Source: Betaproteobacteria bacterium
GTDB taxonomy: Bacteria; Pseudomonadota; Gammaproteobacteria; Burkholderiales; Methylophilaceae
Assembly: GCA_016867975.1 (NCBI GenBank)
Contig: VGIC01000004.1
Location: forward strand, 11,252 to 75,251
Length of the DNA stretch: 64,000 nt
Direction: 5' to 3'
This document shows positions 6,283 through 43,416 of this stretch, piece by piece; position 1 is the stretch's first letter, and each line of letters starts with the position of its first letter. Under the pieces are notes generated by a model that worked only from the letters and a program-made list of their open reading frames with translations, was not told the DNA's origin and did not search any database. The position numbers were made by a program, and so were the translations under genes.

Positions 6283-6350
6283 TTCAAGGGTAGAATTAAA
6301 CGGACTCATGTGAACTAAAACCAAGACAAGAGAAGTAGATGTAAGATGAA

Positions 6351-6375
6351 AGGTGAATTCTAACAGAATTCACCT
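6351..6375. repeat. Perfect 10-bp inverted repeat upstream of purL (hairpin or operator)
   Basis: AGGTGAATTC-taaca-GAATTCACCT. Confidence 0.5.
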
Positions 6376-6632
6376 CATGCAAACTTTCCATCCGCAACTT
6401 TGCTCCATCCAAATGCTAAAAGGTCTTTGCAAGTTTGTTATATTGCTGCACAACGCATCATTTCTACCTGTCGAAATCGCTTTTAGCAGGCGACCAGCGA
6501 AGCCGATGCTCGCAAAAAAATGTATTGACAGTAGCACTCTTAACTCAAACACGAATTGTTAAGTACATCACAACTCGAATTTAAATTAAGCTTTAGGGCC
6601 ACCTGACTAATCAAGGGGTATGGTATCGCTAT

Positions 6633-9155
6633 TTATTTCTTGGCTTTACCTTTAACGTTTGAAGCCACATGCCAAATATTATTTGCATAATCGGCAATCG
6701 CACGGTCGCTCGAGAATTTAGCCATATTCGCCACGTTCAAGATCGCCATACGCGTCCACCCATCCTGATTCTGATACAGTGCACCTACCCTGTCCTGCGT
6801 ATCGATATAGCTGGCGTAGTCAGCCAATAGTAGGTATTGGTCATTATTCAGCAAGTTATCAACAATCGCCTGATAACGACTTGGCTCATCAATCGAGAAG
6901 TGGCCATTTGCGATCATATCAATCACCTGTTTCAATTCCGGATTGTTGTCATAGTAGTCACGAGGGCGATAACCATTTGCCTTAACCTCAGCAACTTCAG
7001 GCGTAGTTAAGCCAAAAATAAAGATATTTTCATCCCCCACTTCTTCCATAATCTCGACGTTAGCGCCATCAAGCGTGCCAATTGTCAACGCGCCATTCAA
7101 AGCCATTTTCATGTTACCGGTGCCACTTGCCTCGGTACCTGCAGTTGAAATCTGCTCAGACAGATCACTGCCTGGGAATAGGATTTCAGCGGCTGAAACC
7201 TCATAGTTCGGGTAGTACACTACTTTAAGTTGATCACCGATCGCCACATCTTCATTGACGATGACCGCAACATCATTGATCAACCGAATGATTTGCTTCG
7301 CCATCCAGTACCCTGGCGCCGCCTTACCACCAAAGATCACCGTGCGTGGCGTAATGTTTTTCTCGCCATTTTTGATCCGGTTATACAAGGTGATGACATG
7401 CAACACATTCAACAACTGACGCTTATACTCATGGATACGCTTGATCTGCACGTCAAACAGACTGTCGACGTTCAATTTCACCCCTGTTTTTTCTAGAATC
7501 TTAGCGGCCAGTCGTGCCTTGTTGGCTTTTTTGACTTGTGAAAACGCCTTTCTGAAGTCGGCATCATCCGCCAATGGCACGATCTTCTTGATAAGTTTAA
7601 GATCTTTCTTAAACTCAGGACCAATAGCCTTCTCAATCAGGGCAGTTAAATTAGGGTTAGCTTGATTAAGCCAACGGCGTGGCGTAATGCCGTTCGTCAC
7701 ATTGGTCATCTTGCCTGGATAGATACGGTCAAAATCTGCGAACAGCGTCTTTTTCAGCAACTCACTGTGCAGCTCGGCTACACCATTCACGGTGTGACTA
7801 CCTACCACGGCCAAGTGCGCCATGCGCACACGACGACCATGCGTTTCATCAATGATAGAAACACGCTTTAACAGATCTGCATCGCCAGGAAAGTGGTGGT
7901 TCACCATATGTAGAAACTCATGGTTAATCTTGTAGATAATTTCCAAATGACGTGGTAACAGGCGGCCAAACAGATCAACAGACCATGTTTCCAACGCTTC
8001 CGGCATCAATGTGTGGTTGGTATACGCAAAAATCTTGCCTACCAATCCCCATGCAAAATCCCATGGTAGCCCGTGCTCATCAACTAGTTGATACATCATT
8101 TCCGCAACGCCAATCGCCGGATGGGTATCATTTAATTGAATCGCAATTTTCTCAGGTAACAACTTCCAGTCTTCTTGTGTCTTAATCGAATGCGCACTTA
8201 AGAAGCGACGAAGAATGTCTTGAATAGAGGCTGAAACAAAGAAATATTGCTGTTTTAGACGTAACTCTTTACCCAACACAGAAGAGTCGTTCGGGTATAG
8301 CACTTTTGAAATACTTTCTGTGCGGTTACGCTCTTCAACTGACTTTTCATAGTTACCATCATTGAAGTGCCACAAATCAAATTCACGCGCCGCTTTTGCT
8401 GACCATAAGCGCAATGTATTTACGGTATCGGTACCATAACCAGGCACCGGCACATCGTATGCAGTTGCCACAACATGTTCTGCATCGACCCAACGCTGAC
8501 CTTCACCTTGGTCTGCCGAATACCTCAGAACATCTCCATAGAACTTAATGACGTATGTAGACTCTGGCCGCTGGAATTCCCAGACATTGCCATAGCGCAG
8601 CCAGTTATCCGGATTCTCGATCTGCTGCCCCCCCTCGATACTCTGCCTGAACATGCCATACTCATAGCGGATACCGTAGCCTGAAGCCGGAATGTCCAAG
8701 GTAGCCATAGAATCAAGAAAACAAGCAGCCAACCTGCCTAAGCCCCCATTGCCTAAGGCCGCATCCGTTTCCATTTCCACAGTAGTTTCCAGATTGCGTT
8801 CCAAATCAGTCAAACCATCTCTTAATTCCTCATTGATGCCCAAATTAAGTGCAGCATTGCTCAACATGCGCCCAATTAGGAACTCAAGCGACAAATAATA
8901 AACACGCTTCGGGTCTTCCAGATAGTAAGATTCCGTAGTTTTGATCCACCGCTCAACCACATGGTCGCGCACGGTGTAACTCGCCGCGTCGTACCAATCG
9001 CGTGGCGTTGCTGCTGCGTCAGTCTTGAAAGTTGAGTAGATCAGATGATTATGCAAAGCCTGCTTGATCGGCAATAGCTTTGGCACAGAAGCAACTTTAG
9101 CCCTCACTGCTCTTTTAGGTTTTGCTTTTGGGGCTTCTTGCATTTTCATATTCAT
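6633..9155 (-). CDS. glgP: Glycogen/alpha-glucan phosphorylase
   Basis: LGNGGLGRLAACF, QLNDTHP, KRIHEYKRQ and EASGTGNMK (PLP lysine) motifs. Confidence 0.97.
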   Translation of the reverse strand: MNMKMQEAPKAKPKRAVRAKVASVPKLLPIKQALHNHLIYSTFKTDAAATPRDWYDAASYTVRDHVVERWIKTTESYYLEDPKRVYYLSLEFLIGRMLSNAALNLGINEELRDGLTDLERNLETTVEMETDAALGNGGLGRLAACFLDSMATLDIPASGYGIRYEYGMFRQSIEGGQQIENPDNWLRYGNVWEFQRPESTYVIKFYGDVLRYSADQGEGQRWVDAEHVVATAYDVPVPGYGTDTVNTLRLWSAKAAREFDLWHFNDGNYEKSVEERNRTESISKVLYPNDSSVLGKELRLKQQYFFVSASIQDILRRFLSAHSIKTQEDWKLLPEKIAIQLNDTHPAIGVAEMMYQLVDEHGLPWDFAWGLVGKIFAYTNHTLMPEALETWSVDLFGRLLPRHLEIIYKINHEFLHMVNHHFPGDADLLKRVSIIDETHGRRVRMAHLAVVGSHTVNGVAELHSELLKKTLFADFDRIYPGKMTNVTNGITPRRWLNQANPNLTALIEKAIGPEFKKDLKLIKKIVPLADDADFRKAFSQVKKANKARLAAKILEKTGVKLNVDSLFDVQIKRIHEYKRQLLNVLHVITLYNRIKNGEKNITPRTVIFGGKAAPGYWMAKQIIRLINDVAVIVNEDVAIGDQLKVVYYPNYEVSAAEILFPGSDLSEQISTAGTEASGTGNMKMALNGALTIGTLDGANVEIMEEVGDENIFIFGLTTPEVAEVKANGYRPRDYYDNNPELKQVIDMIANGHFSIDEPSRYQAIVDNLLNNDQYLLLADYASYIDTQDRVGALYQNQDGWTRMAILNVANMAKFSSDRAIADYANNIWHVASNVKGKAKK

Positions 9156-9260
9156 GACTCTTTAAACTGATTAATAATGGCGTGATTTTAGCAAAAATTA
9201 CGCCAACTTTTTGACTACGCGATTGAAAGTTACAATTGATAATATCTATACAAGATTCTC

Positions 9261-9302
9261 AAAAAACACAAAGCCGATCAGTCATCACCGAGCGGCTTTG
9301 TG
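9261..9302 (-). terminator. Intrinsic terminator after htpG
   Basis: CACAAAGCCG/CGGCTTTGTG stem followed by a U-tract on the minus strand. Confidence 0.75.
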
Positions 9303-9362
9303 CTGCCTGTAGGCTTAACTCCAAAAACCGCAGATTCAACGTATTTAACTGCGGCTTCTAGG

Positions 9363-11249
9363 TTAGCTAATCAAACTATTCATCCGCTTAACAAAACTGG
9401 CAGGATCTTCCAAAGTACCGCCTTCGGCCAATAAAGCTTGATCAAACAGCACATGCGCCAAATCACCAAACAAGGATTCAACCGCCTCGCTCTCTAGACG
9501 CTTCACCAACTTATGGGTTGGATTCACCTCAAGAATCGGTTTGGTTTCAGGCATCTTCTGCCCGGCAGCCTTCAACATGCGCGCCAGATTACCAGACAAC
9601 TCATGCGCATCACTCACCAGACATGCAGGAGAGTCGGTCAGGCGATGGGTCACGCGCACATCTTTAACTTGATCACCCAAGCTTTGCTTGATGCGCTCAA
9701 CTAGGGACTTGGAATCTTCTTCAATTTTCTTTTGGATCTCTTTCTCAGTATCTGATTCCAGTTTACCCAAATCCAAATCACCCTTGGCGATAGACTGTAG
9801 TTTCTTGCCCTCAAACTCGGTTAAACTACCCAGTAACCACTCATCCACACGGTCAGACATCAGCAACACTTCGATGCCTTTCTTGCGGAAGATCTCCAAA
9901 TGCGGACTATGTTGTGCGGCGGCAAAGCTATCTGCCGTGATGTAATAGATAACGTCCTGTTCAGACTGCATGCGCGAGATGTAGTCCTTCAATGACACTT
10001 CTTGCGCATCCGTATCGGCCTTGGTCGAGGCAAAGCGTAACAAACCAGCGATCTTTTCTTTATTCGCAAAATCTTCACCCGGACCCTCCTTCAATACCCG
10101 ACCAAACTCTTGATAGAATTTTGTATAGTCTTCCGGTTTATTTTCTGCCATATCTTCCAGCAGCCCCAACACCTTTTTCACAGAACCCGCCTTGATGGCT
10201 TCAACATCACGGCTAGATTGCAGAATCTCGCGTGACACATTGAGTGGCAAATCTGCTGTATCAATCACCCCACGCACGAAACGCAGATATTGCGGCATCA
10301 ATTTTTCTGCGTCTTCCATAATGAATACGCGCTTCACATACAGTTTGATGCCATGACGACGCTCACGATCATACAAATCAAACGGCGCACGACTTGGAAT
10401 ATAGAGCAGAGAAATATATTCCTGCTTCCCCTCGACACGACTATGGGTATGGGCGAGCGGATTTTCGAAATCATGTGATACGTGCTTATAAAACTCCTGA
10501 TACTCCTCTTCGGTAATGTCGTTTTTATTGCGAGCCCACAAGGCAGAAGCCTTATTCACTGTCTCATCTTCATCCGTAGGCACTTCTGCGCCATCTTTCC
10601 ACTCCGACTTCTTCATCACGATCGGCAAGGTGATATGGTCTGAAAATTTACGGATGATGGTTTTCAATTTCCAATCACTCAGAAACTCGTCTTCACCATC
10701 ACGCAGATGCAACACAATGTCTGTACCGCGAGCCGACTTCTCTACGGTTTCGATCGTGTAATCGCCCTCCCCGGCAGACTCCCAGCGCACAGCCTCTTGG
10801 GTGCCAGCACGACGCGTTGTTAGGGTAACTTTGTTGGCAATAATGAATGCTGAGTAGAACCCTACCCCAAACTGCCCAATCAAGTTCGCATCTTTTGCCT
10901 GATCACCCGTTAGCGCATTGAAGAACTCTTTTGTGCCAGATTTTGCAATGGTACCAATATGCGAAATCACCTCATCGCGGCTCATTCCGATCCCATTGTC
11001 TGAAATCGTCACGGTGCGTGCCGCTTTGTCATAAGCAATACGAATCTTTAATTCACTGTCGTTTTCATACAATGCGCCATTAGCGAGCGCTTCGAAACGC
11101 AACTTATCGGCAGCATCCGACGCATTAGAAATCAACTCACGCAATACGATCTCTTTGTTGCTGTATAACGAGTGAATCATCAATTGCAACAACTGCTTGA
11201 CTTCGGCCTGAAAAGCCATCGATTGTTTTTGTGCTGTCTCTACAGACAT
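9363..11249 (-). CDS. htpG: Hsp90-family chaperone HtpG
   Basis: [21 protein letters not shown] and LPLNVSRE motifs. Confidence 0.98.
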
Positions 11250-11291
11250 AGATTTCGCTCCTGAAAGTTTAAGAAATAAACGATGGAGCTT

Positions 11292-11320
11292 AATTGGGGA
11301 TCGCCCGTCCGTTTTTCAAG
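11292..11320 (-). promoter_or_regulatory. Sigma-32 (RpoH) promoter of htpG
   Basis: Minus strand CTTGAAA-14 nt-CCCCAATT, matching the RpoH consensus CTTGAAA/CCCCATNT. Confidence 0.8.
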
Positions 11321-11641
11321 TGGGGCATTCTGAAATAAAAGACTTCACGGAAAAAAGGTGTTCGATCGCCTGCTATCCAATCTCTATCCATCCGACAGCA
11401 AGCTCTTGATGTTACAAATGGCGCATCCACAAACCTAAAAAAAAGCAGTTAAAAAGCAAGTTAGAAGCCTAAACCACGTCCAGCAAGGCAACACCCTCAC
11501 CCTGCCCATCTATCTCAGGGAGAGTGACCGTGGATGACCCAGCCATTGGTTTTCCCGTGGAATATACACAATAATCTTATCAACAAAGAAGTGTAATATG
11601 TATTGGCGGGAGACAACACCTTGTATCAGGGAATGAATTGA

Positions 11642-11669
11642 CATATTATATAACTATATAGTTATTTAG
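11642..11669 (+). promoter_or_regulatory. AT-rich operator-like site upstream of ccoG
   Basis: Contains the perfect 16-bp palindrome ATAACTATATAGTTAT (11650-11665); 23/28 identical to 24128-24155. Confidence 0.55.
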
Positions 11670-11694
11670 AGTTATAACACTAAGGGGTGGTTAC

Positions 11695-13143
11695 ATGTTA
11701 GAAAAAAAAGAGAGAGCTTCCTCAAACACAAAAGCTGGCGTCTCAGATGATGCCGCTGTTATCAATCTTTATGCCGCTTCAGACAAGATATACCCGCGCA
11801 GCACATCTGGTTTTTTTACCCAATGGCGCTGGGTCATGATCTGGATGACCCAACTTTTCTTCTACGGTATGCCGTGGCTAGAATGGGGACAGCGTCAAGC
11901 ACTGCTATTTGACTTGGAAGCTCGCCGCTTCTATATCTTCAATCTGGTGCTGTATCCGCAAGATCTTATCTACCTGACCGCAATTCTGATTATTTCCGCG
12001 TTATCGCTGTTTCTATTCACCACGGTCGCAGGGCGCCTGTGGTGTGGTTACACTTGCCCGCAGACGGTCTACACCGAGATATTTCTCTGGATAGAGACCA
12101 AGGTCGAGGGGGATCGTGCCGCACGTATGAAGCTTGATGATGGCGAGCTATCGGTGAAGAAATTTGCCTCCAAGGTCACAAAACATCTGATCTGGGTTGC
12201 GTTTGCACTATGGACCGGCTTTAGTTTTGTTGGATACTTCACCCCCATCCGCGAGCTGGGAATATCTGTGACTAACCTCAGCTTGGGTCCATGGGAGACA
12301 TTCTGGGTGCTGTTCTACGGATTTGCCACCTATGGTAATGCAGGCTTTATGCGAGAGCAGGTCTGTAAATACATGTGCCCCTATGCGCGGTTCCAAAGCG
12401 CGATGTTCGATGATGACACCTTGATCGTCACGTATGACGAGCAACGCGGCGAACCTCGCGGAAAAGTGTCTCGCAAAGGAGACTTGAACACCACCAGTCA
12501 GGGCGCCTGCATTGATTGCAGCCTATGCGTTCAAGTGTGCCCAACCGGCATTGATATTCGCAAAGGGCTACAATATGAATGTATCGGCTGTGGCGCATGT
12601 GCAGATATCTGCGATACCGTGATGGACAAAGTCCACTCACCGCGCGGTCTGATCAGATACTCCACTCAAAACGCTGTCAGAAACGGGTGGTCACGCAATG
12701 AGATGTTGCGTCGCATCGCACGACCACGCGTCATGATCTATACCGGATTACTGATGATATTGACCATCGCCACCATCACCAGCCTGATCTTGCGACCGAC
12801 ATTCAAGGTAAATGTCATCCGTGATCGAGGCGTCATGGCACGTCTGGCTGAAGGCGGCATGCTGGAGAATGTGTATCGTCTGCAAATCATGAACGCCACA
12901 GAAACCCGGCAACATTATCAAATCAGTGCCAACGGTTTAGATAAGCTGGTACTGCAATCGGATGTCAATGATGCGCAAGGCACGGTAGCCGTTAATCCGG
13001 CTCAGTTGCGTTCGATTCCCGTGCGACTACAGATCCCAGACGGCACGAAGCCATCAGGCTCGCACCCTGTTAAGTTCAGCGTGAAATCAATTGAGCAGAA
13101 TGAGACCTTGGTCGAGAAGTCGGTGTTCCTCGTGCCGAGATAA
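11695..13143 (+). CDS. ccoG: Cytochrome c oxidase accessory protein CcoG/FixG (membrane 4Fe-4S protein)
   Basis: CGYTCPQ, CKYMCPY, CIDCSLCVQVCP and CIGCGACADIC motifs; C-terminal Ig-like FixG domain. Confidence 0.92.
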   Translation: MLEKKERASSNTKAGVSDDAAVINLYAASDKIYPRSTSGFFTQWRWVMIWMTQLFFYGMPWLEWGQRQALLFDLEARRFYIFNLVLYPQDLIYLTAILIISALSLFLFTTVAGRLWCGYTCPQTVYTEIFLWIETKVEGDRAARMKLDDGELSVKKFASKVTKHLIWVAFALWTGFSFVGYFTPIRELGISVTNLSLGPWETFWVLFYGFATYGNAGFMREQVCKYMCPYARFQSAMFDDDTLIVTYDEQRGEPRGKVSRKGDLNTTSQGACIDCSLCVQVCPTGIDIRKGLQYECIGCGACADICDTVMDKVHSPRGLIRYSTQNAVRNGWSRNEMLRRIARPRVMIYTGLLMILTIATITSLILRPTFKVNVIRDRGVMARLAEGGMLENVYRLQIMNATETRQHYQISANGLDKLVLQSDVNDAQGTVAVNPAQLRSIPVRLQIPDGTKPSGSHPVKFSVKSIEQNETLVEKSVFLVPR

Positions 13144-13171
13144 TGAGCTTAATCCCAAGTGCTGGGCTACT

Positions 13172-15781
13172 TTACCCCAAAAGGCTCTTTAACTGGTATA
13201 AAAAATCCAGCGCCTGCTTCGGCGTCAGGTCATCCGCCTGCATCGATTCTAATGCCGAGATCACAGGATGCTGAGGCAACTCATCCACCTGCTCATTTGC
13301 CACAAACATATCCGCTTGTGGTGAATGGGCAGGCTCTTGTAGCAACTGACTCACCTCTAGCTGTGCTAACTTACGCTTTGCCGCTGCAATCACCGGCTTA
13401 GGGATGCCGGCAAGTTGCGCCACTTGCAGACCATAGCTCTGATTCGCCGCCCCCTCTTCCACCTTGTGCATAAAGACAATGCTATTGCCATGCTCGATCG
13501 CATCGAGATGCACATTAGCGGCATATTTAAATTCATCGACGATACGTGTTAGCTCGAAATAGTGCGTGGCAAACAGCGTGTAAGCACGATTCTTTTCCAG
13601 TAGTTGCTTAGCCACCGCCCACGCCAAACTCAGGCCATCAAACGTCGAGGTACCACGCCCGATCTCATCCAGTAGCACCAGACTCTTGTCAGTGGCATTA
13701 TGCAGAATATTGGCTGTTTCTGTCATTTCCACCATAAAGGTTGAACGACCACCCGCCAAGTCGTCAGATGCGCCTATTCGCGTCATGATGCGATCTATTT
13801 CACCTATTTTTGCCGATGTTGCAGGCACATAGCAGCCAGAATAGGCCAACAACACAATCAAGGCTGTCTGACGCATAAAAGTGGATTTACCCCCCATATT
13901 AGGGCCGGTAATCAGCAACAACTGTCGGTACGGATTCAGTGTCACATCGTTCGCAATAAAAGGTTGCCCTGAGGTCGCAACAGAGATCTGCTCAACGACA
14001 GGATGGCGACCGTGAACAATCTCGACACCCGCTTCAGCAGTGAATTGCGGCGCAACGTAGTTTAAACTCTCGGCACGCTCTGCAAAGCAGCACAACACAT
14101 CCAGCATAGCGACCGCCCCTGCATTGTTCTGCAAAGATTCGATAAACTCTGCCAGCGCCACCAGCACTTGCTCGTACAGCATCTTTTCACGCGCCAGCGC
14201 ACGCTCATTGGCACTCAACACTTTGTCTTCAAAGGCTTTAAGCTCCGGCGTGATAAAGCGCTCCACATTTTTCAGTGTCTGACGTCGCCTGTATTCCGGC
14301 GGAGCACTTTCTGCCTGTGTGCGACTCATCTCGATATAAAAACCATGCACACTGTTGTACTCGACTTTTAGATTGGCAATGCCAGTGCGCGCTTTTTCCG
14401 CCGCCTCGAATTGAAGCAAAAAGTCACCATGATTAGTCTGAATCGCTCGCAATTCATCAAGCTCACGATCATAACCATCCGCGATCACACCCCCCTCGCG
14501 CAACACAACACTGGGTTCTGTCTTAATGGCACGGCGCAATATATCCAGCACGGGTTCTGGCGCAAGCAAACTTATTGTGAGTGTTTGCAACAATGCCGCT
14601 TGCAACCCAGTCAGCTGGCTTTGCAATTCCGGCAACTGCTGTAAGCTTAAATGCAGCGCAGATAAATCTCTGGGCCGCGCGGTTTTTAACGCCACGCGTG
14701 CGGTGATGCGCTCAATATCAGCGATTGACCGCAATCCCTTTCTGACAGCGTCATATTTCTTACTGCATATCAAATCGCCAACGGCCTCGTGACGCTGACT
14801 GACCTGATGCCGATCCTGCAATGGATGGTGCAGACAATGCCTGAGCAATCGTGCGCCCATCGCCGTGTATGTGGTATTCAGTAGCGAGTACAAGGTCGGA
14901 CTTGCCTCCCCCCGTAATGTCACATCGATCTCCAGATTACGGCGCGTCGCTGCATCCAGCTGTAAGTAGGCGCTGGTTGATTCCACTATGAGCGCATTGA
15001 TATGGGGCAACGTAGTTCTCTGTGTATGTTTCACATAATCGAGTAACGCACCCGCCGCACAGATCGCGGGCTTAAGGTCCGCGCAGCCGAACCCATTCAA
15101 ATCATAGGTATTGAATTGCTTGGTCAACGTTTGGAATGCACTGTCAAAATCAAACTGCCAGGAGCTGAGTCGTTTTTTAGCAACTTTGCTACTGGTGATC
15201 GCGGCATGTTGAAAATCATCTGCCAGCAATATCTCACTGGGGGTGATACGCTCAATTTCATGCCCCAGCATCCCCACCGCAATCTCGCTCAAAACAAATC
15301 GGCCGGAGGCAAGATTGAGCCGCGCCAAGCCAATCACCCCCTCGGCTTGAAAGAGACTTAATAATGGATAGTCACGCGATTCATCCAGCAAGGCCGCATC
15401 GGTGAGCGTACCCGGGGTCAATATTCTAGTCACCTCGCGCGCTACCGGTCCCTTGCTGGTCGCAGGGTCGCCGACTTGCTCGCAGATCACCACCGCCTCC
15501 CCTAGCTTAGCCAGCTTAGCCAGATAACCCTCAGCAGCATGATACGGCACACCCGCCATTTTGATGGGCTGACCATTGCTACTGCCACGCTGTGTCAGTG
15601 TAATGCCGAGCAACTTGGCAGCCTTTTCAGCATCGTCAAAGAACAGCTCGTAAAAGTCCCCCATGCGATAGAACAACAACATATCGGGATGCTGTGCTTT
15701 TAGCCCAAGATACTGACGCATCATGGGCGTATGGTTTTCCACGTCAGCTACATTGACGTGGCTATTCTGCTGTGTTGTCAT
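13172..15781 (-). CDS. mutS: DNA mismatch repair protein MutS
   Basis: [35 protein letters not shown] and YGLQVA motifs. Confidence 0.98.
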
Positions 15782-35894: not shown

Positions 35895-36539
35895 TTAGAT
35901 TTTAAGGGTGTCTTGCATGAAGTGAACCTTGCCTGTACTAATGTCATACACTGCACCGATGATTGCGATTTTTTTGTCTTGTATCATGTCGGTGACAATG
36001 TCGCTACTACGGATGATGGTGTCAATTTGATGTTGCACGCTCAGGCGGTTAATTTTTTCCACGAAATCAGGGTTTTTTGAGCACCGATCTTCTGGGTTTG
36101 TAATGGTTTTTTCATGTCTAATCGCCGGTTTAATCAAATTGATAATCTCACCAATGTGACCATCCATAAAGTTATCGCAGGCTGCTTTAACTGCACCGCA
36201 TGAGGTATGCCCCATCACCACAATCAGCTTGCTGCCTAAATATTTGCTGGCAAACTCTAGGCTGCCAATGGCTTTGTCTGAGGCGATATTGCCTGCCAAA
36301 CGCACACTAAATATATCCCCCAGCGCTTGATCAAATACCAACTCTACTGGAGCGCGAGAATCACTGCAGCTTAAAAAAGAAGCAAAAGGGTGTTGCTTGT
36401 CCTTGGTTTGGTGGATGAGCGTTTGAAAGTCTTTGTCTTCCTCGCAGTCAGACAAAAAACGCTGATTACCTTCAATCAAAATATCCAGCGCCTCTTGCGG
36501 CGTCATTTTGTCACGGTCTAATAACGGGTGTTTATACAT
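35895..36539 (-). CDS. Beta-class carbonic anhydrase
   Basis: EGNQRF, CSDSR and GHTSCGAV zinc-ligand motifs; GDIFSVRLAGN. Confidence 0.95.
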   Translation of the reverse strand: MYKHPLLDRDKMTPQEALDILIEGNQRFLSDCEEDKDFQTLIHQTKDKQHPFASFLSCSDSRAPVELVFDQALGDIFSVRLAGNIASDKAIGSLEFASKYLGSKLIVVMGHTSCGAVKAACDNFMDGHIGEIINLIKPAIRHEKTITNPEDRCSKNPDFVEKINRLSVQHQIDTIIRSSDIVTDMIQDKKIAIIGAVYDISTGKVHFMQDTLKI

Positions 36540-36555: not shown

Positions 36556-38100
36556 TTAACTCTTAGGTTGTATAAATGCTACTTTTTCTACTGTAATGTT
36601 TTTGAGTTTTGCATGTAACTCGTAGTCACGTAAATACTCTGCCACATCATAAGAAATGGATTTGGACTTAGTGCAATCGAGAATCACCTTAGCGTTGGCA
36701 GGTATGGCCTCCAAAGCCTCAATGATGCGTGCCTTGTTAAAGAAAGAGACTTCTTCTGCCAACACAATATGGTGTACCTCGTGACCTTCTTCTGTGGTTT
36801 GAATGTCTTTCATATGGTAAGAATTACGGTAGCTGTGGTGCAAGGCAAAACCCAGCCCCACCAGCAAACCTAAACCAATACCAGTCAGCAAATCTGTGAA
36901 TACAATGGCGACAATCGTCACCATGAAGGGGGAAAACTGTTCCCAACCCAGCGCATACATTTGTTTAAACAAAGCGGGTTTTGCTAGTTTATAACCTACA
37001 ATAATCAAGATAGTCGCCAAGCTCGCCAACGGAATTAAGTTCAAATAACTGGCAATGGTAATGGCGCTGATTAACAACCAAAAGCCATGCAATATGGCTG
37101 ATAACTTGGTTCTCGCGCCAAAGGTAATGTTAGCAGAGCTACGCACAATCACTTGCGTGACGGGCAAGCCGCCGATTAAACCTGAAAGCATGTTGCCCAA
37201 GCCTTGCGCCTTAAGCTCTTGGTTGGTAGGCGTCACGCGTTTCAGGGGGTCTAATTTATCAGTCGCTTCGACGCACAATAAGGTTTCCAAGCTTGCCACG
37301 ATGGCTAATACAATCGCCGTTTTAATGACCGCCACATTATTCCACTGGCTAAAGTCCGGGTAAGTAAAGAAACTCACAAACTCACCTACACTATTGGCTA
37401 CCGGTAAACTGACAATCTGACTAGGTTCTAAACTGAATGGTAATAAGCCTTTTTGATACGTCACATTCATGGCAATACCGACCAATACCACCACAATTGG
37501 ACCTTGCAATACTTGAAAAAACTTATGCTTTTTAGTGAGAAACACATCCCACAAAATAAGGATTGCGAATGAAATCAAGGCAATCGTCACTGCCCCGGGC
37601 GTTAAATAGTCCCAAGCGTTGGAGAGCGTTGTAAAGGTATTTTCACCTGACGCCTGCTCAAACGACATACTTCCCTCAAAGTCTGCATCATAGCCAAAGG
37701 CATGCGGGATTTGTTTTAAGATGATCAATAAACCAATACCGGTGAGCATGCCCTTAATGACCGATGAGGGCACAAAATAGGCGACAAACCCCGCTTTAAA
37801 AAACCCCAAGGCATATTGAATCGCGCCCGCCAACACCACCGCGAGCAAAAAGGCCTCAAAGCTGCCAAGCGCACCAATTGCGGTGAGCACAATCACGGCC
37901 AAGCCGGCGGCCGGGCCACTGACACCTAACTGAGAACCACTAAAAATACCAACGACGATACCGCCCACAATGCCCGCAATAATGCCGGAAAATAATGGCG
38001 CGCCTGAAGCCAAAGCGATGCCCAAACACAAAGGCAGAGCGACGAAAAATACCACGATACTTGCCGGCAAGTCACTTTTAAATTCTTTAAATAATTGCAT
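36556..38100 (-). CDS. SulP-family anion permease with STAS-like tail (probably bicarbonate)
   Basis: SDLPASIVVFFVALPLCLGIALASG, VSGPAAGL, NQELKAQG, VIVRSSAN and a short STAS-like C-domain; AGGGAG RBS before the ATG at 38100. Confidence 0.92.
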   Translation of the reverse strand: MQLFKEFKSDLPASIVVFFVALPLCLGIALASGAPLFSGIIAGIVGGIVVGIFSGSQLGVSGPAAGLAVIVLTAIGALGSFEAFLLAVVLAGAIQYALGFFKAGFVAYFVPSSVIKGMLTGIGLLIILKQIPHAFGYDADFEGSMSFEQASGENTFTTLSNAWDYLTPGAVTIALISFAILILWDVFLTKKHKFFQVLQGPIVVVLVGIAMNVTYQKGLLPFSLEPSQIVSLPVANSVGEFVSFFTYPDFSQWNNVAVIKTAIVLAIVASLETLLCVEATDKLDPLKRVTPTNQELKAQGLGNMLSGLIGGLPVTQVIVRSSANITFGARTKLSAILHGFWLLISAITIASYLNLIPLASLATILIIVGYKLAKPALFKQMYALGWEQFSPFMVTIVAIVFTDLLTGIGLGLLVGLGFALHHSYRNSYHMKDIQTTEEGHEVHHIVLAEEVSFFNKARIIEALEAIPANAKVILDCTKSKSISYDVAEYLRDYELHAKLKNITVEKVAFIQPKS

Positions 38101-38116
38101 GTTAGTGAAACTCCCT

Positions 38117-38401
38117 GAGACCTTTGCACAAAGCATTTTTAACCTAAAAATCTATCAAGTTTGTCATTCCGGCGGAGGCCGGAATCCAGACAGGCTCCAT
38201 AGCCAACTAAAATAACTTTAGCAAGGGCGATTGTTAACTAAACTATAAAAACAATAGGTTATATTGATTTTTCCGACATTATTTTCACTAAAGTTACTAC
38301 TCTAAATGTCACCTTGCCTAGATTCCGGCCTCCGCCGGAATGACGGGTTTTTGATATTTTAGTTAAAAATTGAACCATTTTTTGTTTTGTGCAAAGGTCT
38401 C
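38117..38401. mobile_element. 285-bp nested-palindrome MITE with GAGACCTTTGCA ends and an inverted REP-like doublet
   Basis: Perfect 16-bp TIR GAGACCTTTGCACAAA; subterminal AT-rich IR; inner 27-bp IR GTCATTCCGGCGGAGGCCGGAATCCAG (38163-38189 vs 38318-38344, 26/27). Confidence 0.8.
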
Positions 38402-38523
38402 TCTCTGTTATTAAATAGTGGCTTAAGCTAATACAGATGACGACTGCGCATATGCCTTAAACCACAAAAACCCTGCTTGTGAATATTCACAGGCAGGGCA
38501 GCTTACCAGCCGATATATTACAG

Positions 38524-38802
38524 TCAGTCTTTACTGCCTTCCAAATAAGGTTGTTTACCCAACATATTGATTCGCAATTTTTGATATTCAGTCGGGCCGT
38601 CTTTGGCCTTATCTTCTCCAGTCACCTTCGTCGCACCTTCCCAACCTTCTTCTTTGTTGTTTGCAGACTCATCCGGCAATTGCTGATATGGGCGCTTGGA
38701 CAGGTTCTGGTTGTTTACATTATCCTTGTCAGTTGCATATGCCAAACCACTCGCCAACAAAATCGCGGTAGATACAATCACTGCCAAATTAAAGCTTTTC
38801 AT
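38524..38802 (-). CDS. Small secreted protein B (two KRPY-like motifs flanking GWEGAT)
   Basis: AGGAG RBS, signal peptide (LAYA-T); paralogous to 38838-39110 with a 20-bp identical stretch. Confidence 0.85.
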   Translation of the reverse strand: MKSFNLAVIVSTAILLASGLAYATDKDNVNNQNLSKRPYQQLPDESANNKEEGWEGATKVTGEDKAKDGPTEYQKLRINMLGKQPYLEGSKD

Positions 38803-38837
38803 GTCCATCTCCTAATCCCTTATTCGCACACTCACTA

Positions 38838-39110
38838 TTAATATGGACGCTTAGACAAATTATTGAGACGTTGTACGTGCTGTTTCTGATCTACAGCATT
38901 GCCATCTTCACTTACTTCGCCACGCACCAATGTCGCACCTTCGAAGCCATCAGCTTTTTGATAAGCACTCTCAGGCAGAGGTTGTGCATAGGCACGTTTT
39001 GCGAAGTTTTGATTGTGTACATTTTTCTTGTACGCATCTTCCGCATTGGCCAAACCAGAAGCCATTAAAGCTACTGCTGATACAATCACTGCCAAATTCA
39101 TCGTTTTCAT
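38838..39110 (-). CDS. Small secreted protein A (two KRPY-like motifs flanking GFEGAT)
   Basis: AAGGAG RBS, signal peptide (LANA-E), paralogy with the downstream gene. Confidence 0.85.
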   Translation of the reverse strand: MKTMNLAVIVSAVALMASGLANAEDAYKKNVHNQNFAKRAYAQPLPESAYQKADGFEGATLVRGEVSEDGNAVDQKQHVQRLNNLSKRPY

Positions 39111-39203
39111 GTTCATCTCCTTCATCAATTACTGCTTCGTTAATTTAAGTTTCAATCGCTTTGTTGATGGAACGCATTATGCAGGGGCTTAGTCAATGAA
39201 AAA

Positions 39204-39221
39204 TCTACCAAAATAGGTAGA
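39204..39221. promoter_or_regulatory. Palindrome in the divergent peptide/luxR promoter (candidate LuxR/NarL-type operator)
   Basis: TCTACC-aaaata-GGTAGA. Confidence 0.5.
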
Positions 39222-39242
39222 ACGGTATATACTATATGGCAT

Positions 39243-40004
39243 ATGCCAAATGACATATCACACACGATTGAGCAGCCCGCCAGCGCACGAGCGTTGCGGC
39301 AAAGCCTGAAACAGACACAGGCCAATGATACGCATCTGCGCCTTTACCAGAATCTGGGTCAGCAATTATTTGAACATGGCTGGAGTGCAGCCACTGCATC
39401 CAATCTGCTACATTCCCTTTGCACCTTACTCTCGGCACAGCACGCCATATTGGCGATAGAGGACTCCGGCAAGTTGATTGTATCCAGCCAAGTCGGTCAG
39501 GCCCTGCCAGTAGGCGCCAGGATTCCCATGATGGGCATACTGGCAATGATGTTGAAAAACCCAGTCAATTTTACGCTGTATGAGAACAAGAATACGCAAT
39601 TATGGACACATGGTGAGGCTGCCCACCATGAATGCTTGATCCCCATCGCGCTGAACCGCCATGGCGTGGGCATCATTGCGCTTTCCGGCAAAAAGCTCAC
39701 GCTGAACCCGGCAGAAATCGAGTCTTTACAAGCGTTTGCAGGCCTGTTGGCGCTCGCCATCTCCCAGCACCAAAACCCGACACGTAGCGAGGCGGATCAA
39801 ACCATCCTGGAAGCGTTAACCCCAAGGGAACGCGAGATTCTGGCCTTGCTGCCTTCCGGCCTAAGCAACAACGAGCTGGGTGCAAAGCTCGGCATTGCGC
39901 CTGGCACAGCCAAAATCCACGTCGAGCGCGTGCTGAGTAAGCTGGGCGTCAAGGACAGGACACAAGCGGCTGTGAAAGCGGTTGAACTGGGGTACAAAGC
40001 ATGA
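39243..40004 (+). CDS. GAF-like domain plus LuxR-type HTH regulator (no receiver domain)
   Basis: C-terminal LTPREREILALL..GLSNNELG..LGIAPGTAKIHVERVLSKLG; N-terminal IPIAL..GVGIIAL..LQAFAGLLALAI, GAF-like. Confidence 0.88.
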   Translation: MPNDISHTIEQPASARALRQSLKQTQANDTHLRLYQNLGQQLFEHGWSAATASNLLHSLCTLLSAQHAILAIEDSGKLIVSSQVGQALPVGARIPMMGILAMMLKNPVNFTLYENKNTQLWTHGEAAHHECLIPIALNRHGVGIIALSGKKLTLNPAEIESLQAFAGLLALAISQHQNPTRSEADQTILEALTPREREILALLPSGLSNNELGAKLGIAPGTAKIHVERVLSKLGVKDRTQAAVKAVELGYKA

Positions 40005-41941
40005 ACCCGCTTGGCCGCATTGCACAGGCTTGGCAGAACCTTCCCCTCGGGCTCAAGGGTGTTTTCGTCATTGCCCTTCCCTTGCTGGTCTTGCTGGCTT
40101 CTTTGGGCTCTCTGTATTTAAGGGAACAAGAATCCACACAGCTTGAAAACAAGCTCCGGCTGGCGCTGCAAAACCAGCGCGACATCCAGACCGTGCATAG
40201 CCAACTGCTGGAAGCTTCCACCGGTGTCAGGGATTACTTGCTGACTGGTGACAAACATTTTCTGAATATTTTTTTTCGCGTCGAGCAAGCTTTGCCAACG
40301 ACTCTTGTACAACTTCAAACCCAGCTGGAAAACGAAACGCAGAAGCAGCGCCTCGCCAGAATTACGCCTTTGGTTGAACAAAACCTGCATGATTTGCGCA
40401 TCATGTCTGAATACGAATCTGAGGTCGCCTCGGAAAACCTGATTGCCAAATTCAAATCGCAAGTGAACACACTGGATAAACTTCGCTACGAGATTGAACT
40501 GCTCAATGCGGAAGAAGCGATTTTGGTAGCCAAAGACCAGCAGGATGTCTTTGAGCAGCGACAGCGCAATATCACCATCACCTTACTGGCCGCCATTACC
40601 GGCATCATCGGCTCTTTGGTAGCCGTTTGGATATTCTCACGCACCATCGTCAAACGTGTACGATTGCTGAGAGACAGTGCAGCTCACCTGGCCAAGGCAG
40701 AAGCCTTGGACCTGCCCTCCAGCAGCCGTGACGAATTAGGACAACTCTCCGACGAGCTGGAACACGCTTCGCAATTACTGGCACAAAATATCAATGCCGC
40801 CAATCAGTCGCGGCATGAAGCCGAAGAGGCCAGCGCTGCAAAAAGCATGTTTTTATCTCGCACCAGCCATGAGCTGCGAACCCCGCTTAACGCGATTTTA
40901 GGGTTCGCCCAACTTTTGGAGCTGGATTTAGCACCAGGCAAGCAGTTGAATAGCGTTCAGCTGATTAAAGGCGCTGGCCAGCATTTGCTTAAGCTCATCA
41001 ACGAAGTGCTTGAAATCGCAAGAATCGAATCTGGTGAAACAACCCTAGAGCTTACGCCAGTTTCAATCAACAGCCTGCTGGAAGAGGCCGCGCATTATAT
41101 TGCCCCGATTGGTAAAGTGAGAGACATTGAGATTCGCTCTAACATCTCGCCTGATTTATGGGCAATGGCTAACCGGCAGAAGCTATTGCAGGTGACATTA
41201 AACCTGCTCTCCAACGCATTGAAATACGGCCCTGTCAGCTCTACTGTGCAGTTAAACGCCTATCGCCGCAGTGATGTGATTGTGATTGAAGTGCAGGACA
41301 CTGGTCCAGGCATCCCTGCCGACCTGAGAGAACGGGTGTTTACCCCATTTGACAGACTGGGCGCTGAGAATACCAAAGTGGAAGGCACAGGTTTGGGGCT
41401 GGCGCTATCCAAGCAGATTATGCTGGCGATGCATGGCAACATCCAGCTTGCAACAGACAAGAGCTTATTCTGGATAGAGATCACAGCCTGCGCTCCGGAT
41501 ATGTCTGTACCAGAGCAGGCTCAACAGACCAACATTAGCAAACCGGTGAGCCTGTCTGACAAACACTCTATTCTTTATGTGGAAGACAATATCAGTAACC
41601 GCGCTTTGGTCGAGGCGATTATCATGCGCCAGCGCGACTTACGCATCCATTGCGTATCCACCATCAAGGATGCCAAACGATACTTGGCAGAAGTACACCC
41701 TTCGGCATTGCTGATTGATTTAAACCTGCCAGATGGCTCAGGTGAGGAGTTGGTATATCACGTACTGAATGCGCCTGAGCTCAAAAATATTCCAATGATG
41801 ATTTTAAGTGCAGATGCGCTGCCAGATACTATCAGCCGTTTACAAGCCGCCGGCGTGGCAAGCTATATGACAAAGCCATTGGATGTTGCATTGTTCAATA
41901 AGCAAATCAGAGAACTTCTTCAAAATCAGGATCAATCATGA
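40001..41941 (+). CDS. Hybrid sensor histidine kinase (CHASE3, HAMP-like, HisKA, HATPase, REC)
   Basis: Two TM helices; STGVRDYLLTGD (CHASE3), SHELRTPLNAILGF, NALKY, DTGPG, GTGLGL; C-terminal receiver YVEDN..IDL..TKP. Confidence 0.92.
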   Translation: MNPLGRIAQAWQNLPLGLKGVFVIALPLLVLLASLGSLYLREQESTQLENKLRLALQNQRDIQTVHSQLLEASTGVRDYLLTGDKHFLNIFFRVEQALPTTLVQLQTQLENETQKQRLARITPLVEQNLHDLRIMSEYESEVASENLIAKFKSQVNTLDKLRYEIELLNAEEAILVAKDQQDVFEQRQRNITITLLAAITGIIGSLVAVWIFSRTIVKRVRLLRDSAAHLAKAEALDLPSSSRDELGQLSDELEHASQLLAQNINAANQSRHEAEEASAAKSMFLSRTSHELRTPLNAILGFAQLLELDLAPGKQLNSVQLIKGAGQHLLKLINEVLEIARIESGETTLELTPVSINSLLEEAAHYIAPIGKVRDIEIRSNISPDLWAMANRQKLLQVTLNLLSNALKYGPVSSTVQLNAYRRSDVIVIEVQDTGPGIPADLRERVFTPFDRLGAENTKVEGTGLGLALSKQIMLAMHGNIQLATDKSLFWIEITACAPDMSVPEQAQQTNISKPVSLSDKHSILYVEDNISNRALVEAIIMRQRDLRIHCVSTIKDAKRYLAEVHPSALLIDLNLPDGSGEELVYHVLNAPELKNIPMMILSADALPDTISRLQAAGVASYMTKPLDVALFNKQIRELLQNQDQS

Positions 41942-42405
41942 CCGAAGCAGACATTCTAAACGCTAAGATTCTCATCGTAGACGATGCAGAGGCCAATTTA
42001 AAGCTACTGGAAGATTTACTGGCAAGAGAGGGATTTCATCAAATCATCAGCACCGCAGACTCCACACGTGCATTGGATTTATTCAAAGCGTTTGAGCCGG
42101 ACTTAATCCTGCTGGACTTAATGATGCCCGAGTTAGATGGCTACGCGGTATTAGAAATACTCTCGCGCCATATCGCAAAAGATGAGTATCTACCGGTACT
42201 GGTACTGACGGCAGATGCCACCATTGGCGCAAAAAGAAAAGCCTTGGCTTTAGGGGCCAAGGACTTTTTAACTAAACCTTTTGATACCATTGAGGCGATG
42301 CTTCGCGTTTGGAACCTGCTTGAAACGCGCCTGTTGTATCGCCATTTGAAATCACTCAATGCCGACATTAAACCTGCGGTGCATTCACATCAATCTACTG
42401 AATAA
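41938..42405 (+). CDS. Single-domain response regulator (REC only)
   Basis: ILIVDD, LLDLMMP, LTA and FLTKPF motifs with only a short tail. Confidence 0.92.
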   Translation: MTEADILNAKILIVDDAEANLKLLEDLLAREGFHQIISTADSTRALDLFKAFEPDLILLDLMMPELDGYAVLEILSRHIAKDEYLPVLVLTADATIGAKRKALALGAKDFLTKPFDTIEAMLRVWNLLETRLLYRHLKSLNADIKPAVHSHQSTE

Positions 42406-42432: not shown

Positions 42433-43416
42433 TTATTGAGTAAGCATCGCCACTTGATTCAAAGCCACATCAGCACGTGCAGTTCTTTCAGTGATCTTAT
42501 TCAAATAAGCGATCGCTTGTGGATGCTCAGCATTTAATGACAGCACTTTTTTGAAGTGATCTTTAGCTTGTTCATAAGCTTGTGTTTCATACTCAGCTGC
42601 AGCCAAGTGAAACCAAGACTCAGCTACTTCAGGCTCGCTTTTTACCCAAGCTTGAGAAACCGCCAACAAAGATTTCCAATTTTTGGAAACATAAGGTTGC
42701 ACCACTTGCATAAAGTAAGGACGTTCCTTTTCACTTGCAGCCCAGAAAGGTTTTTTACTTTCAACCCCCAAAGCCTGAGCAGGCTTATCCATCAGTGACT
42801 GCACCCACTCTACCGGCATATAGAAATACTGTGCTTCGCTACCACGGCTTTTTAAGGTGATGATTCCCACCAGAGACCCAGTTTCATCAAACACGCCACC
42901 GCCACTAGCCCCTAATTTGAAAGGACTGCTTGCGCGTATTACCATACTGCCATCCATGGGAAACATTGCCTTAACGACACCATAAGTATTCACTGGCACA
43001 GTAGTCTCACCAGGATAGCCCACAGTAAAGACTGCGGTTTCATATTTCAAACTCTTAGTAGCATGCATCTTTGCTACAGGAGCTTCTAAATCAGCAACCG
43101 TAAGAATACATAAGTCATGGTGCCAATCCGGCTTGACTGACGTTGCTTCATGAGCGACACCATTCGCCACCACTTTTACATCACGTGCATCGGTCACCAC
43201 ATGGCAATTGGTCACCACTTGGTCTTTAGCAATGACCACTGCTGATCCAAGACCATCAGACCCATTATTGTGCTTTACTTGCACTCGCAACACTTGTGCA
43301 TTCAACTCGCGCACCATTTCATCGGTAGGCGTAGCCCAAGCATGATGAGTCAAACACCCCATGAAAACTGTCGAACCTAATATGGCTAGATTTAATACTC
43401 TAAGATAATGTTTCAT
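42433..43416 (-). CDS. Secreted trypsin-like (S1C) serine protease with C-terminal TPR
   Basis: Signal peptide; triad motifs TNCHV, HDLC and GASGGG; TPR-like AESWFHLAAAEY. Confidence 0.88.
   Translation of the reverse strand: MKHYLRVLNLAILGSTVFMGCLTHHAWATPTDEMVRELNAQVLRVQVKHNNGSDGLGSAVVIAKDQVVTNCHVVTDARDVKVVANGVAHEATSVKPDWHHDLCILTVADLEAPVAKMHATKSLKYETAVFTVGYPGETTVPVNTYGVVKAMFPMDGSMVIRASSPFKLGASGGGVFDETGSLVGIITLKSRGSEAQYFYMPVEWVQSLMDKPAQALGVESKKPFWAASEKERPYFMQVVQPYVSKNWKSLLAVSQAWVKSEPEVAESWFHLAAAEYETQAYEQAKDHFKKVLSLNAEHPQAIAYLNKITERTARADVALNQVAMLTQ

Follow-up and report, generated by a model that had tools for sequence, protein, structure and literature searches.

In the Cpx system, the small Sec-exported periplasmic protein CpxP is encoded divergently from the signaling genes that control it. 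CpxP is the strongest output of the system and is believed to act back on the sensor CpxA through its periplasmic domain, and the circuit includes DegP, a protease of the HtrA family. Asr, the acid shock protein of Enterobacteria, is a Sec-exported and disordered periplasmic protein that is rich in His, Lys, and Ala, processed, and induced by a two-component system. Small exported proteins are routinely left as “hypothetical,” and we know of essentially no ligands of CHASE3 sensor domains. Here, we describe two tandem genes, A and B, that encode small exported proteins in a 64,000-nucleotide (nt) stretch of a Methylophilaceae genome (positions 11,252 to 75,251 of contig VGIC01000004.1, assembly GCA_016867975.1), which we refer to as the window.

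A and B belong to a novel, previously undescribed family that, by analogy, would most resemble the small periplasmic accessory proteins of two-component sensors in function. The locus recalls cpxP and cpxA through its divergent layout, its unique operator, its HtrA-like protease neighbor, and a co-variation with the sensor domain. As with cpxP, the genes stand beside a signaling system that, judging from the sequence, controls them. We propose, with a probability of roughly 0.4, that A and B are LuxR-driven periplasmic ligands or feedback modulators of the neighboring CHASE3 histidine kinase, in the manner of CpxP. All functional statements on A and B made here rest on comparative genomics.

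Genes A and B and their family

Both genes lie on the minus strand and were delimited from their open reading frames (ORFs) and ribosome-binding sites (RBSs). Gene A occupies 38838..39110 and gene B 38524..38802, stop codons included, encoding 90 and 92 amino acids, respectively. The full minus-strand ORFs span 38838..39128 (A) and 38524..38808 (B), within which the RBS-compatible starts are at 39110 (GGAG-N6-ATG, MKTMNL) and 38802 (AGGAG-N6-ATG, MKSFNL). The two proteins are 54% identical (BLASTP E 6e-25). A 20-bp exact identity, gatacaatcactgccaaatt, at 38771-38790 and 39079-39098 is nested in a 79-nt direct repeat of 76% identity that spans the RBS and the signal peptide. A first-pass annotation of the window had described two tandem paralogs with similar RBSs and signal peptides, and these coordinates and repeats agree with it. 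Each N terminus is a hydrophobic helix ending in AxA, as in Sec-type signal peptides (residues 1-23; 39042-39110 in A and 38734-38802 in B), and A23 is invariant in the alignment. The ratio of nonsynonymous to synonymous substitution rates (dN/dS) is 0.06 to 0.12 for A against close orthologs, which are 60 to 91% identical, and 0.23 to 0.24 for B. By these measures, A and B are real, constrained paralogous genes.

The mature chains comprise 67 to 69 residues, with 10 to 11 Lys and Arg, 9 to 13 Asp and Glu, and 12 Asn and Gln, and both are free of Cys, as the annotation had noted. Mature A, of 67 residues, ends exactly in ...LSKRPY-COOH, and mature B ends in ...GKQPY-LEGSKD, that is, with an acidic tail. 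In A, the motif profile places motif 1, NQNFAKRAY, at residues 33-41 (38988..39014, minus strand, as for all motifs here); the central FEGAT occupies residues 56-60 (38931..38945), and motif 2, LNNLSKRPY, forms the C terminus at residues 82-90 (38841..38867; motif 2 profile). In B, NQNLSKRPY covers residues 31-39 (38686..38712), WEGAT residues 54-58 (38629..38643), and INMLGKQPY residues 78-86 (38545..38571), followed by the tail LEGSKD (38527-38544). The pair thus holds the four copies of a short motif that had been claimed for it: A carries AKRAY and SKRPY around FEGAT, and B carries SKRPY and GKQPY around WEGAT. AlphaFold2 returned a mean predicted local distance difference test score (pLDDT) of 62 and a predicted template modeling score (pTM) of 0.20 for A (60-sequence alignment) and 59 and 0.18 for B (25-sequence alignment), with a helix in the signal peptide only. 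The mature chains are therefore predicted to be intrinsically disordered, as first supposed, and a hidden fold was rejected because pTM was at most 0.20 in both runs.

A word-indexed search returned 25 relatives of B, and an exhaustive profile search of 1.84 billion cluster representatives returned 97 clusters, all of 46 to 124 amino acids. Exactly two copies of [KRQ][KRQ][PAGS][YFWHL] occur in 132 of the 157 distinct family members; for the stricter core [KR][KRQ]P[YF], composition alone predicts 0.006 per protein. The motif profile over 141 sequences reads Q-N-L-S-K-R-P-Y, with K at 84%, R at 96%, P at 87%, and Y at 93%. The separate profiles of motif 1, (H/N)-N-Q-N-L-S-K-R-P-Y, and motif 2, L-R-L-(N/H)-M-L-G-K-R-P-Y, match, so that both are versions of one element, x-(N/H)-x-(L/I/M)-(S/G)-K-R-P-Y. 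FEGAT or WEGAT is present in 73 of the 157 members, most of the others listed have close variants, and a third motif is present in some distant members. In alignments of 25, 72, and 60 sequences, the motifs are the best-conserved columns, so the repeat seen in A and B is conserved in their homologs.

The family is found in 74 of 251 Methylophilaceae genomes (9 of 41 genera), which include streamlined planktonic genomes of 1.2 to 1.6 Mb and the culturable Methylotenera mobilis 13, and is absent from the ~390 genomes of other families of the same order that were searched. A and B are the only copies in the window's own 1.56-Mb genome. Within the genomes covered, the family is confined to methanol-using Methylophilaceae and their phages. 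The mature chains match nothing in Pfam, NCBIfam, PHROGs, PADLOC, or the PDB sequences, and the weak hits fall around the signal peptide. DUF4148 (PF13663) reaches 10.7 bits against a gathering threshold of 27 (E 0.73, residues 1-24 only, the signal peptide), DUF6520 (PF20130) reaches 12.5 bits against 25.4 (E 0.19, residues 1-38 only), and the sole PHROG match, phrog_24782 (E 0.0013), covers residues 2-35, which is essentially the signal peptide. All three were rejected. That no characterized family was recognized in the first place accords with these searches, and literature searches on Methylophilaceae, SulP, and carbonic anhydrase and on CHASE3 in methylotrophs turned up nothing about these genes.

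The family divides into two subtypes. In every tandem array, the gene or genes closest to the divergent luxR-type gene belong to subtype A and end at the motif 2 aromatic residue (...KRP[Y/F]-COOH), the C-terminal tail being empty in all such copies. The last gene of the array is subtype B and carries a mostly acidic tail of 2 to 7 residues, such as MEGNKD, MEKSTD, AEKNTD, or APTNND. B is always present, and single-copy loci hold B alone. On a maximum-likelihood tree, the subtype labels need 4 to 6 changes versus ~27 when shuffled, and the large A-only and B-only clades each cross genera. The A/B split is thus old, and both forms have been maintained. Copy number per genome ranges from 1 to 7. 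The upper value occurs in a Methylophilus-type genus, one genome of which has five members within 10 kb (locus L073, G176:C1:1957000-1976500): one pair beside LuxR, one copy convergent with the gene for a receiver (REC) protein, and a second A+B pair beside two unannotated 224- to 225-amino-acid ORFs and a sulfate-type ABC transporter.

Divergent promoter and co-variation with CHASE3

Divergently from A and B, the plus strand encodes a GAF-LuxR regulator with Pfam GerE and GAF_2 domains and no receiver domain (39243..40004). It is followed by a hybrid histidine kinase of CHASE3-HAMP-HisKA-HATPase-REC architecture (40001..41941; Pfam), whose periplasmic CHASE3 segment covers about residues 35-190, and by a stand-alone REC protein (41938..42405; Pfam) that is syntenic in ~30 loci. 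The small genes are divergently adjacent to GAF-LuxR in all main loci. An ortholog of GAF-LuxR is found in 76 of the 251 Methylophilaceae genomes, including all 74 small-protein carriers. The two genomes with LuxR only are 87 to 88% complete assemblies, and the LuxR gene of G006 sits ~100 bases from the end of its contig. Across the genomes compared, GAF-LuxR, the CHASE3 hybrid kinase, and REC always accompany the family.

The divergent intergenic region of ~130 nt is better conserved than the proteins. Its blocks follow the order CATATGCC (LuxR start), AGTATA(T/C)ACCG, TCTACC-N6-GGTAGA, TTTTT...TTGAC..., GCATAATGC, and ..CCATC. This block is near-identical in 29 loci, and ~100 nt of the promoter is still recognizable where LuxR is only ~45% identical. 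The palindrome TCTACC-N6-GGTAGA (39204..39221), the presumed GAF-LuxR operator, is the only perfect copy in the 1.56-Mb genome. A wider regulon was rejected, since sites with one mismatch occur at the level of a reversed-pattern control. Related loci likewise have one copy each. The distant loci L038-L041 and L073 retain the core CTACC-N6-GG[GT]AG, and the divergent L005 has only a degenerate operator remnant that matches no pattern. Two second loci that lack LuxR keep the element upstream of their small genes, L075 with an intact palindrome and L033 with a promoter containing a one-base palindrome variant. A unique, conserved palindrome in a shared promoter points to a dedicated regulator-target pair.

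We take the hexamer CATAAT (39176..39181, minus strand), which lies within the conserved GCATAATGC, as the -10-like element of the small-gene promoter; its column block is conserved in 9 diverse loci and in 29 loci. With this assignment, the -35 position reads ATTTTT, which is not a good -35 element, and the center of the palindrome lies ~43.5 nt upstream of the predicted transcription start near 39169. The absence of a good -35 suggests activator dependence, and a palindrome at about -43.5 would have the geometry of a class II, LuxR-type activator. On the other side, a TATACT box (39228-39233) stands 9 nt before the GAF-LuxR ATG, leaving no room for an RBS, and the GAF-LuxR mRNA is probably leaderless and autoregulated. 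In this stretch (39226-39258), the LuxR ATG is itself inside a conserved palindrome, GGCATATGCC. A vestigial LuxR start is retained in the LuxR-less loci L033 and L075 and in a phage cassette, so it may itself be part of the cis-element.

Across 14 to 24 loci, we set pairwise distances for A and for B against those for each neighbor, and we applied partial Mantel tests to 13 to 17 loci. The CHASE3 segment correlates with A at r 0.90 and with B at r 0.78, SulP at 0.38 and 0.54, and the carbonic anhydrase (CA) at 0.06 and 0.19, respectively. The correlation between A and CHASE3 persists when the cytoplasmic part of the same kinase is controlled (partial r 0.80, p 0.0002), as it does given the protease (0.88) or the GAF domain (0.74). 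Variants with Poisson distances, ranks, de-duplicated loci, or close loci only (minus three distant loci) gave partial r 0.80 to 0.88 with p at most 0.0007. Once CHASE3 is controlled, A retains no signal for the kinase core or the protease; for GAF, the remaining correlation falls below zero in three variants, and the other two give weak positive values (0.31 to 0.34, p ~0.02). The Methylotenera mobilis group illustrates the pattern: compared with the window, its kinase core (83 to 84% identical) and REC (82 to 86%) are closer than those of most other loci, whereas CHASE3 (66 to 69%) and A (44 to 47%) are more distant. The A subtype thus appears to co-evolve with the periplasmic CHASE3 domain of the neighboring kinase.

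Such domain-specific co-variation points to specific recognition, as do the two near-invariant motifs, the [W/F]EGAT core, and the very low dN/dS of A. These features run counter to a general stress-protective role, in which A and B would be periplasmic hydrophilins or chaperones comparable to Asr or Spy and would lack a specific partner. Proteins that are small, exported, predicted to be disordered, charged and polar, and Cys-free, and that have a dedicated stress-type regulator, would suit that role, but we regard it as highly improbable.

In the mechanism that we favor, GAF-LuxR would bind the palindrome as a class II-type activator and drive strong expression of A and B, triggered either by the active CHASE3 kinase/REC pathway or by a ligand of the GAF domain. 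In the periplasm, A and B would serve as bivalent ligands whose two KRPY motifs dock on a partner. The most probable docking partner, at least for A, would be the dimeric, four-helix-bundle CHASE3 sensor of the same kinase, and docking there would close a feedback loop comparable to that of CpxP on CpxA. Subtype A would be the kinase-matched component and B the ancestral, more generally acting one, copied by phages to interfere with the same circuit, while SulP and the beta-CA would be co-inherited island cargo rather than direct partners. A CHASE3-like four-helix-bundle domain has been proposed to contact a periplasmic protein in the GlnX-GlnH pair (PMC9769921). The first-pass annotation had proposed bivalent periplasmic linkers or regulators; we retain this as the best kind of reading, with CHASE3 as the candidate partner for A. 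The comparisons give no support for a direct role of A and B in SulP-CA.

Several observations weigh against this mechanism. GAF-LuxR has no receiver domain and no Hpt is present, and a route from the kinase to the promoter is not evident. Phages would gain only in the ~30% of hosts with the kinase, and a more widespread target would explain carriage better. The co-inheritance of SulP could indicate a transport-related role. The partial correlations of B are weak and unspecific (0.23 to 0.43 with CHASE3 and 0.37 to 0.48 with the protease). The protease also tracks CHASE3 given the cytoplasmic part (partial r 0.57), so part of the A signal may reflect a shared fast evolution of exported sequences. 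Finally, mirror-tree correlations are indirect, and the 13 to 17 loci are phylogenetically related.

The same evidence can be read as signaling between cells. A and B could be the cell's own protein ligands for the CHASE3 kinase, of an autocrine or quorum type, with A matched to its lineage and B stolen by phages to take over or jam the circuit, which we consider doubtful. Alternatively, A and/or B, possibly trimmed, may leave the cell via outer-membrane channels or vesicles as an extracellular quorum signal that the CHASE3 kinase of neighboring cells senses, with positive autoinduction through GAF-LuxR and mimicry or jamming by phage B. A signal gene beside its sensor and regulator, under a shared and autoregulated promoter, is the classic layout for such systems, and the combination found here of a Sec-type signal peptide with AxA and a CHASE3 kinase in the divergent operon is of the pheromone type. 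A copy number of 1 to 7, the faster divergence of B, the co-variation of A with the sensor domain, as in pherotypes, carriage by phages, and the three outer-membrane barrel genes (BBP2/DUF2490/AlgE-like; Pfam) and protease near the locus also fit. However, there is no evident outer-membrane export route for a 7-kDa protein and no conserved processing enzyme, the protease being absent from distant loci and not carrier specific. In addition, conservation spans the whole chain (dN/dS 0.07 for A) and not only a short mature peptide, and carriers include streamlined planktonic genomes, in which density signaling is less expected. We therefore judge an extracellular signal to be distinctly unlikely.

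Linked genes, phage copies, and other possible roles

Downstream of B on the minus strand lie a SulP transporter (36556-38136), a beta-CA (35895-36539), and a further SulP, which, with the divergent GAF-LuxR, CHASE3 hybrid kinase, and REC genes, is the context first described for the pair (Pfam). SulP and CA are co-inherited neighbors beyond a terminator. An intrinsic-terminator-like hairpin, CCCTGCCTGTG-AATATT-CACAAGCAGGG followed by UUUUUGUGG, occupies 38462..38498 (minus strand), 26 nt past the B stop; it folds at -34.6 kcal/mol (z -3.4), and its inverted repeat was also found in a palindrome scan. In ~20 of 25 loci, the last small gene has an equivalent GC-rich hairpin and U-run behind it, the stems being unrelated in sequence. 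The small genes thus form their own short transcription unit, with sulP-CA expressed only by read-through or from its own promoter. An operon of the small genes with SulP-CA, which the layout as first described might suggest, is not supported, given this hairpin, the carriers without SulP, and a weak correlation with SulP and none with CA.

Between the B terminator and sulP, the window contains a 285-bp nested palindromic insert (38117-38401) with three inverted-repeat layers of 19, 18 to 22, and 30 nt. The B-sulP spacer is about 388 to 391 nt in the window versus 118 nt in close relatives without the insert. Because the outer arm runs into the longest sulP ORF and covers its first codons, sulP translation probably begins at Met13. 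A riboswitch or small RNA before sulP was rejected, as Rfam gave only a sub-threshold WsnRNA46 match on both strands that corresponds to the insert.

In the usual layout, seen in ~25 of 31 genome loci and in metagenomic contigs, an HtrA-like/TPR protease gene faces right and is followed by the genes for REC, the CHASE3 hybrid kinase, and GAF-LuxR, which face left, and then by the small genes (1 to 3 copies), SulP, and beta-CA, which again face right. Three loci keep the protease, REC, LuxR, and small genes with SulP-CA not adjoining. In genus g5 (G004:C79 and C43; G064), a full-length CHASE3-kinase homolog, 42 to 45% identical, is on a separate contig, beside SulP in G004, and the protease, REC, GAF-LuxR, and A+B are together on the other contig; the kinase has persisted despite this division. 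The island thus splits in two parts, one with the kinase and SulP and the other with the protease, REC, LuxR, and the small genes. Locus L012 has SulP 91% and CA 87% identical to the window, with LuxR and the kinase only ~70% identical, which suggests that the transporter pair and the signaling module were exchanged independently between lineages.

A SulP ortholog is found in 80 of the 251 Methylophilaceae genomes, including 71 of the 74 carriers, and small genes, SulP, and CA follow one another in this order at close and very distant loci alike. In the divergent locus L005 (7962-12358), a small gene-SulP-CA unit runs directly on into DabA/DabB genes for the DAB inorganic-carbon pump, which strengthens the inorganic-carbon reading of the island's transporter part. 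These observations would favor A and B as accessories of SulP/beta-CA uptake of anions such as bicarbonate, acting by periplasmic gating, tethering, or anion buffering through Lys and Arg. Yet a terminator separates the small genes from sulP, three carriers have no SulP ortholog, and six to seven genomes have SulP without small proteins. No transporter lies near the second loci or the phage copies, CA lacks a signal peptide, and the correlations of A and B with SulP and CA fall far below those with CHASE3. A transport accessory is thus very unlikely.

At the C terminus of the secreted, HtrA-like protease neighbor (42433-43416), a TPR replaces the PDZ domain. The protein may also have a lipobox (FMGC), and it is a member of a paralogous Methylophilaceae family. 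Judged by its sequence, it is HtrA/DegS/MarP-like, and the residue six positions ahead of the catalytic Ser171 is Pro instead of Asp. The family occurs in 235 of the 251 genomes in 1 to 6 copies and is multi-copy irrespective of the small proteins, making its phyletic profile uninformative. It had been suggested that the chains are cut at the basic motif by this protease. A trypsin-like partner with an acidic S1 pocket for Lys or Arg is at odds with the Pro at the S1-determining position, and the protease is neither carrier specific nor present at distant loci; the cleavage model is thus not supported, and we rejected the protease as a specific partner.

A and B could still act as regulated periplasmic effectors on a widespread envelope component, either the HtrA-like/TPR protease paralogs, as activator (through the C-terminal ...RPY-COOH or ...TD-COOH), decoy substrate, or inhibitor, or a porin, as a plug. 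They would thereby influence envelope proteostasis or permeability and, when phage-borne, superinfection exclusion. DegS is activated by the C termini of outer-membrane proteins, TPR domains form carboxylate clamps, and Arg-Pro bonds resist trypsin-type cleavage. The two C-terminus types of the family, free aromatic and acidic ...D-COOH, resemble the ends read by PDZ and TPR domains. The protease is adjacent in ~24 of 31 loci, including the g5 loci from which the kinase and SulP have moved away, its near-universal family would offer phage-borne B a target in most hosts, and its partial correlation with B about equals that of CHASE3. Several points count against such an effector: the Pro at S1 gives no basic specificity, the protease is not adjacent in distant lineages, and close paralogs occur in genomes without small proteins. 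Moreover, controlling for CHASE3 leaves A with no co-variation with the protease, and the porin-binding variant has no supporting observation. We consider this role rather unlikely.

A B-type subfamily with the tail AEKNTD is carried by 16 IMG/VR contigs, the largest 104 kb long, and by one further, phage-like contig from a metagenome; a tblastn search of 50,697 deposited phage genomes found no match to the family. The contigs carry genes for a gp32-type single-stranded-DNA-binding protein, head-maturation protease, GroEL, endolysin, and virion proteins as well as terminase, portal, major head, anti-restriction, and methyltransferase genes; by this content, they are true phages. Eleven phage copies form one clade (99/98 support), which falls, with weaker support (87/75), in a group that includes the Methylotenera B genes. 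L064, a 52-kb phage, has a copy that is placed apart from these, beside a Methylotenera B gene (98/86), and these two placements imply two independent captures of B. The L064 gene lies just upstream of the terminase module and retains the complete host regulatory block, with the palindrome and the vestigial LuxR start. Capture on two occasions, once with the operator, is consistent with a gene acting by itself on a host circuit.

The L064 copy (IMG/VR UViG_3300021093_000107, 9812-10358) forms a moron-like cassette of host promoter/operator and B-type gene. It is flanked by imperfect ~25-nt direct repeats (AAAGACTAATTTGTAAGAyTAAGT) 496 bp apart and sits between an anti-restriction/methyltransferase block and the terminase genes. 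In another phage, L056, of at least 89 kb (UViG_3300017917_001434, 4774-14691), two radical S-adenosylmethionine (SAM) genes that flank a ClpP-like head protease and a full-length GroEL gene all lie a few kb from the B-type gene, and the small ORFs before B (122, 99, and 58 to 60 amino acids) recur in the unrelated contig L037. An identity of A and B as ribosomally synthesized and post-translationally modified peptide precursors was rejected because host loci contain no modifying enzyme (radical SAM, cyclodehydratase, etc.); radical-SAM genes occur ~2 to 5 kb from one phage copy, and other phage loci lack them.

If A and B do bind the sensor, they would be the first identified class of ligand for a CHASE3 domain and, if they signal, would represent protein-based signaling of an autocrine or quorum type by a Gram-negative methylotroph. 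The system is compact and testable: it comprises a pair of short secreted proteins together with a single unique operator, a single regulator, and a single kinase, and evolutionary evidence points to the sensor domain as partner. Its accessory island with SulP/CA is present in ~30% of Methylophilaceae, including abundant freshwater plankton lineages, and may be relevant to the way these methylotrophs regulate their uptake of anions or inorganic carbon. Two kinds of phage have captured the gene independently, once with an intact host promoter, which suggests that the protein alone is enough to change host physiology, and phage-borne B would add a new type of phage auxiliary gene. Together, the captures and the sensor-domain co-variation lift A and B above an ordinary “hypothetical secreted protein.”

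Comparison with known systems

Despite the likeness of the locus to cpxP and cpxA, its components differ. A and B match no Pfam family, and their predicted disorder contrasts with the helical hairpin and LTXXQ motifs of CpxP and its relative Spy. The A/B family also has two subtypes and a variable copy number, unlike CpxP. The regulator is a GAF-LuxR protein without a receiver domain instead of the OmpR-type response regulator of Cpx. The candidate sensor is a CHASE3 domain in place of the CpxA periplasmic domain, and feedback on it is our proposal. Asr resembles A and B in its precursor of ~100 amino acids, its Sec signal, its disordered basic and polar mature chain, and its repeated short motifs. 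However, the two are not homologous, and the KRPY and [W/F]EGAT motifs and the A/B pairing are unique to the family described here.

Phages are known to carry regulatory mini-proteins of host type that work through short binding motifs, such as arbitrium AimP and the Rap-Phr cassettes in Bacillus phages and CP12 in cyanophages. The stand-alone B-type gene on 16 viral contigs, with its two apparent captures, is of this kind. CP12 is cytoplasmic, though, and AimP and Phr are secreted oligopeptides of Gram-positive bacteria with known receptors, whereas phage B is a 65-amino-acid periplasmic protein of a Gram-negative host. Unlike AimP, Rap-Phr, and CP12, the B-type gene was kept with the host's own operator in one phage.

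The arrangement of a disordered chain with motif, [W/F]EGAT, and motif recalls the unstructured translocation domain of colicin E9, in which two OmpF-binding sites flank a TolB-binding epitope. A and B share no sequence similarity with colicin E9, have no toxin domain, and are made and kept by their own cell. The closest parallel on the sensor side is GlnH-GlnX of Corynebacterium and Mycobacterium, in which a CHASE3-type extracytoplasmic four-helix bundle is proposed to receive its signal from a secreted protein (PMC9769921). GlnH is a folded solute-binding protein with a small ligand and no homology to A or B, and the output of GlnX is a Ser/Thr kinase, in contrast to the disordered chains and hybrid histidine kinase of the A/B locus.

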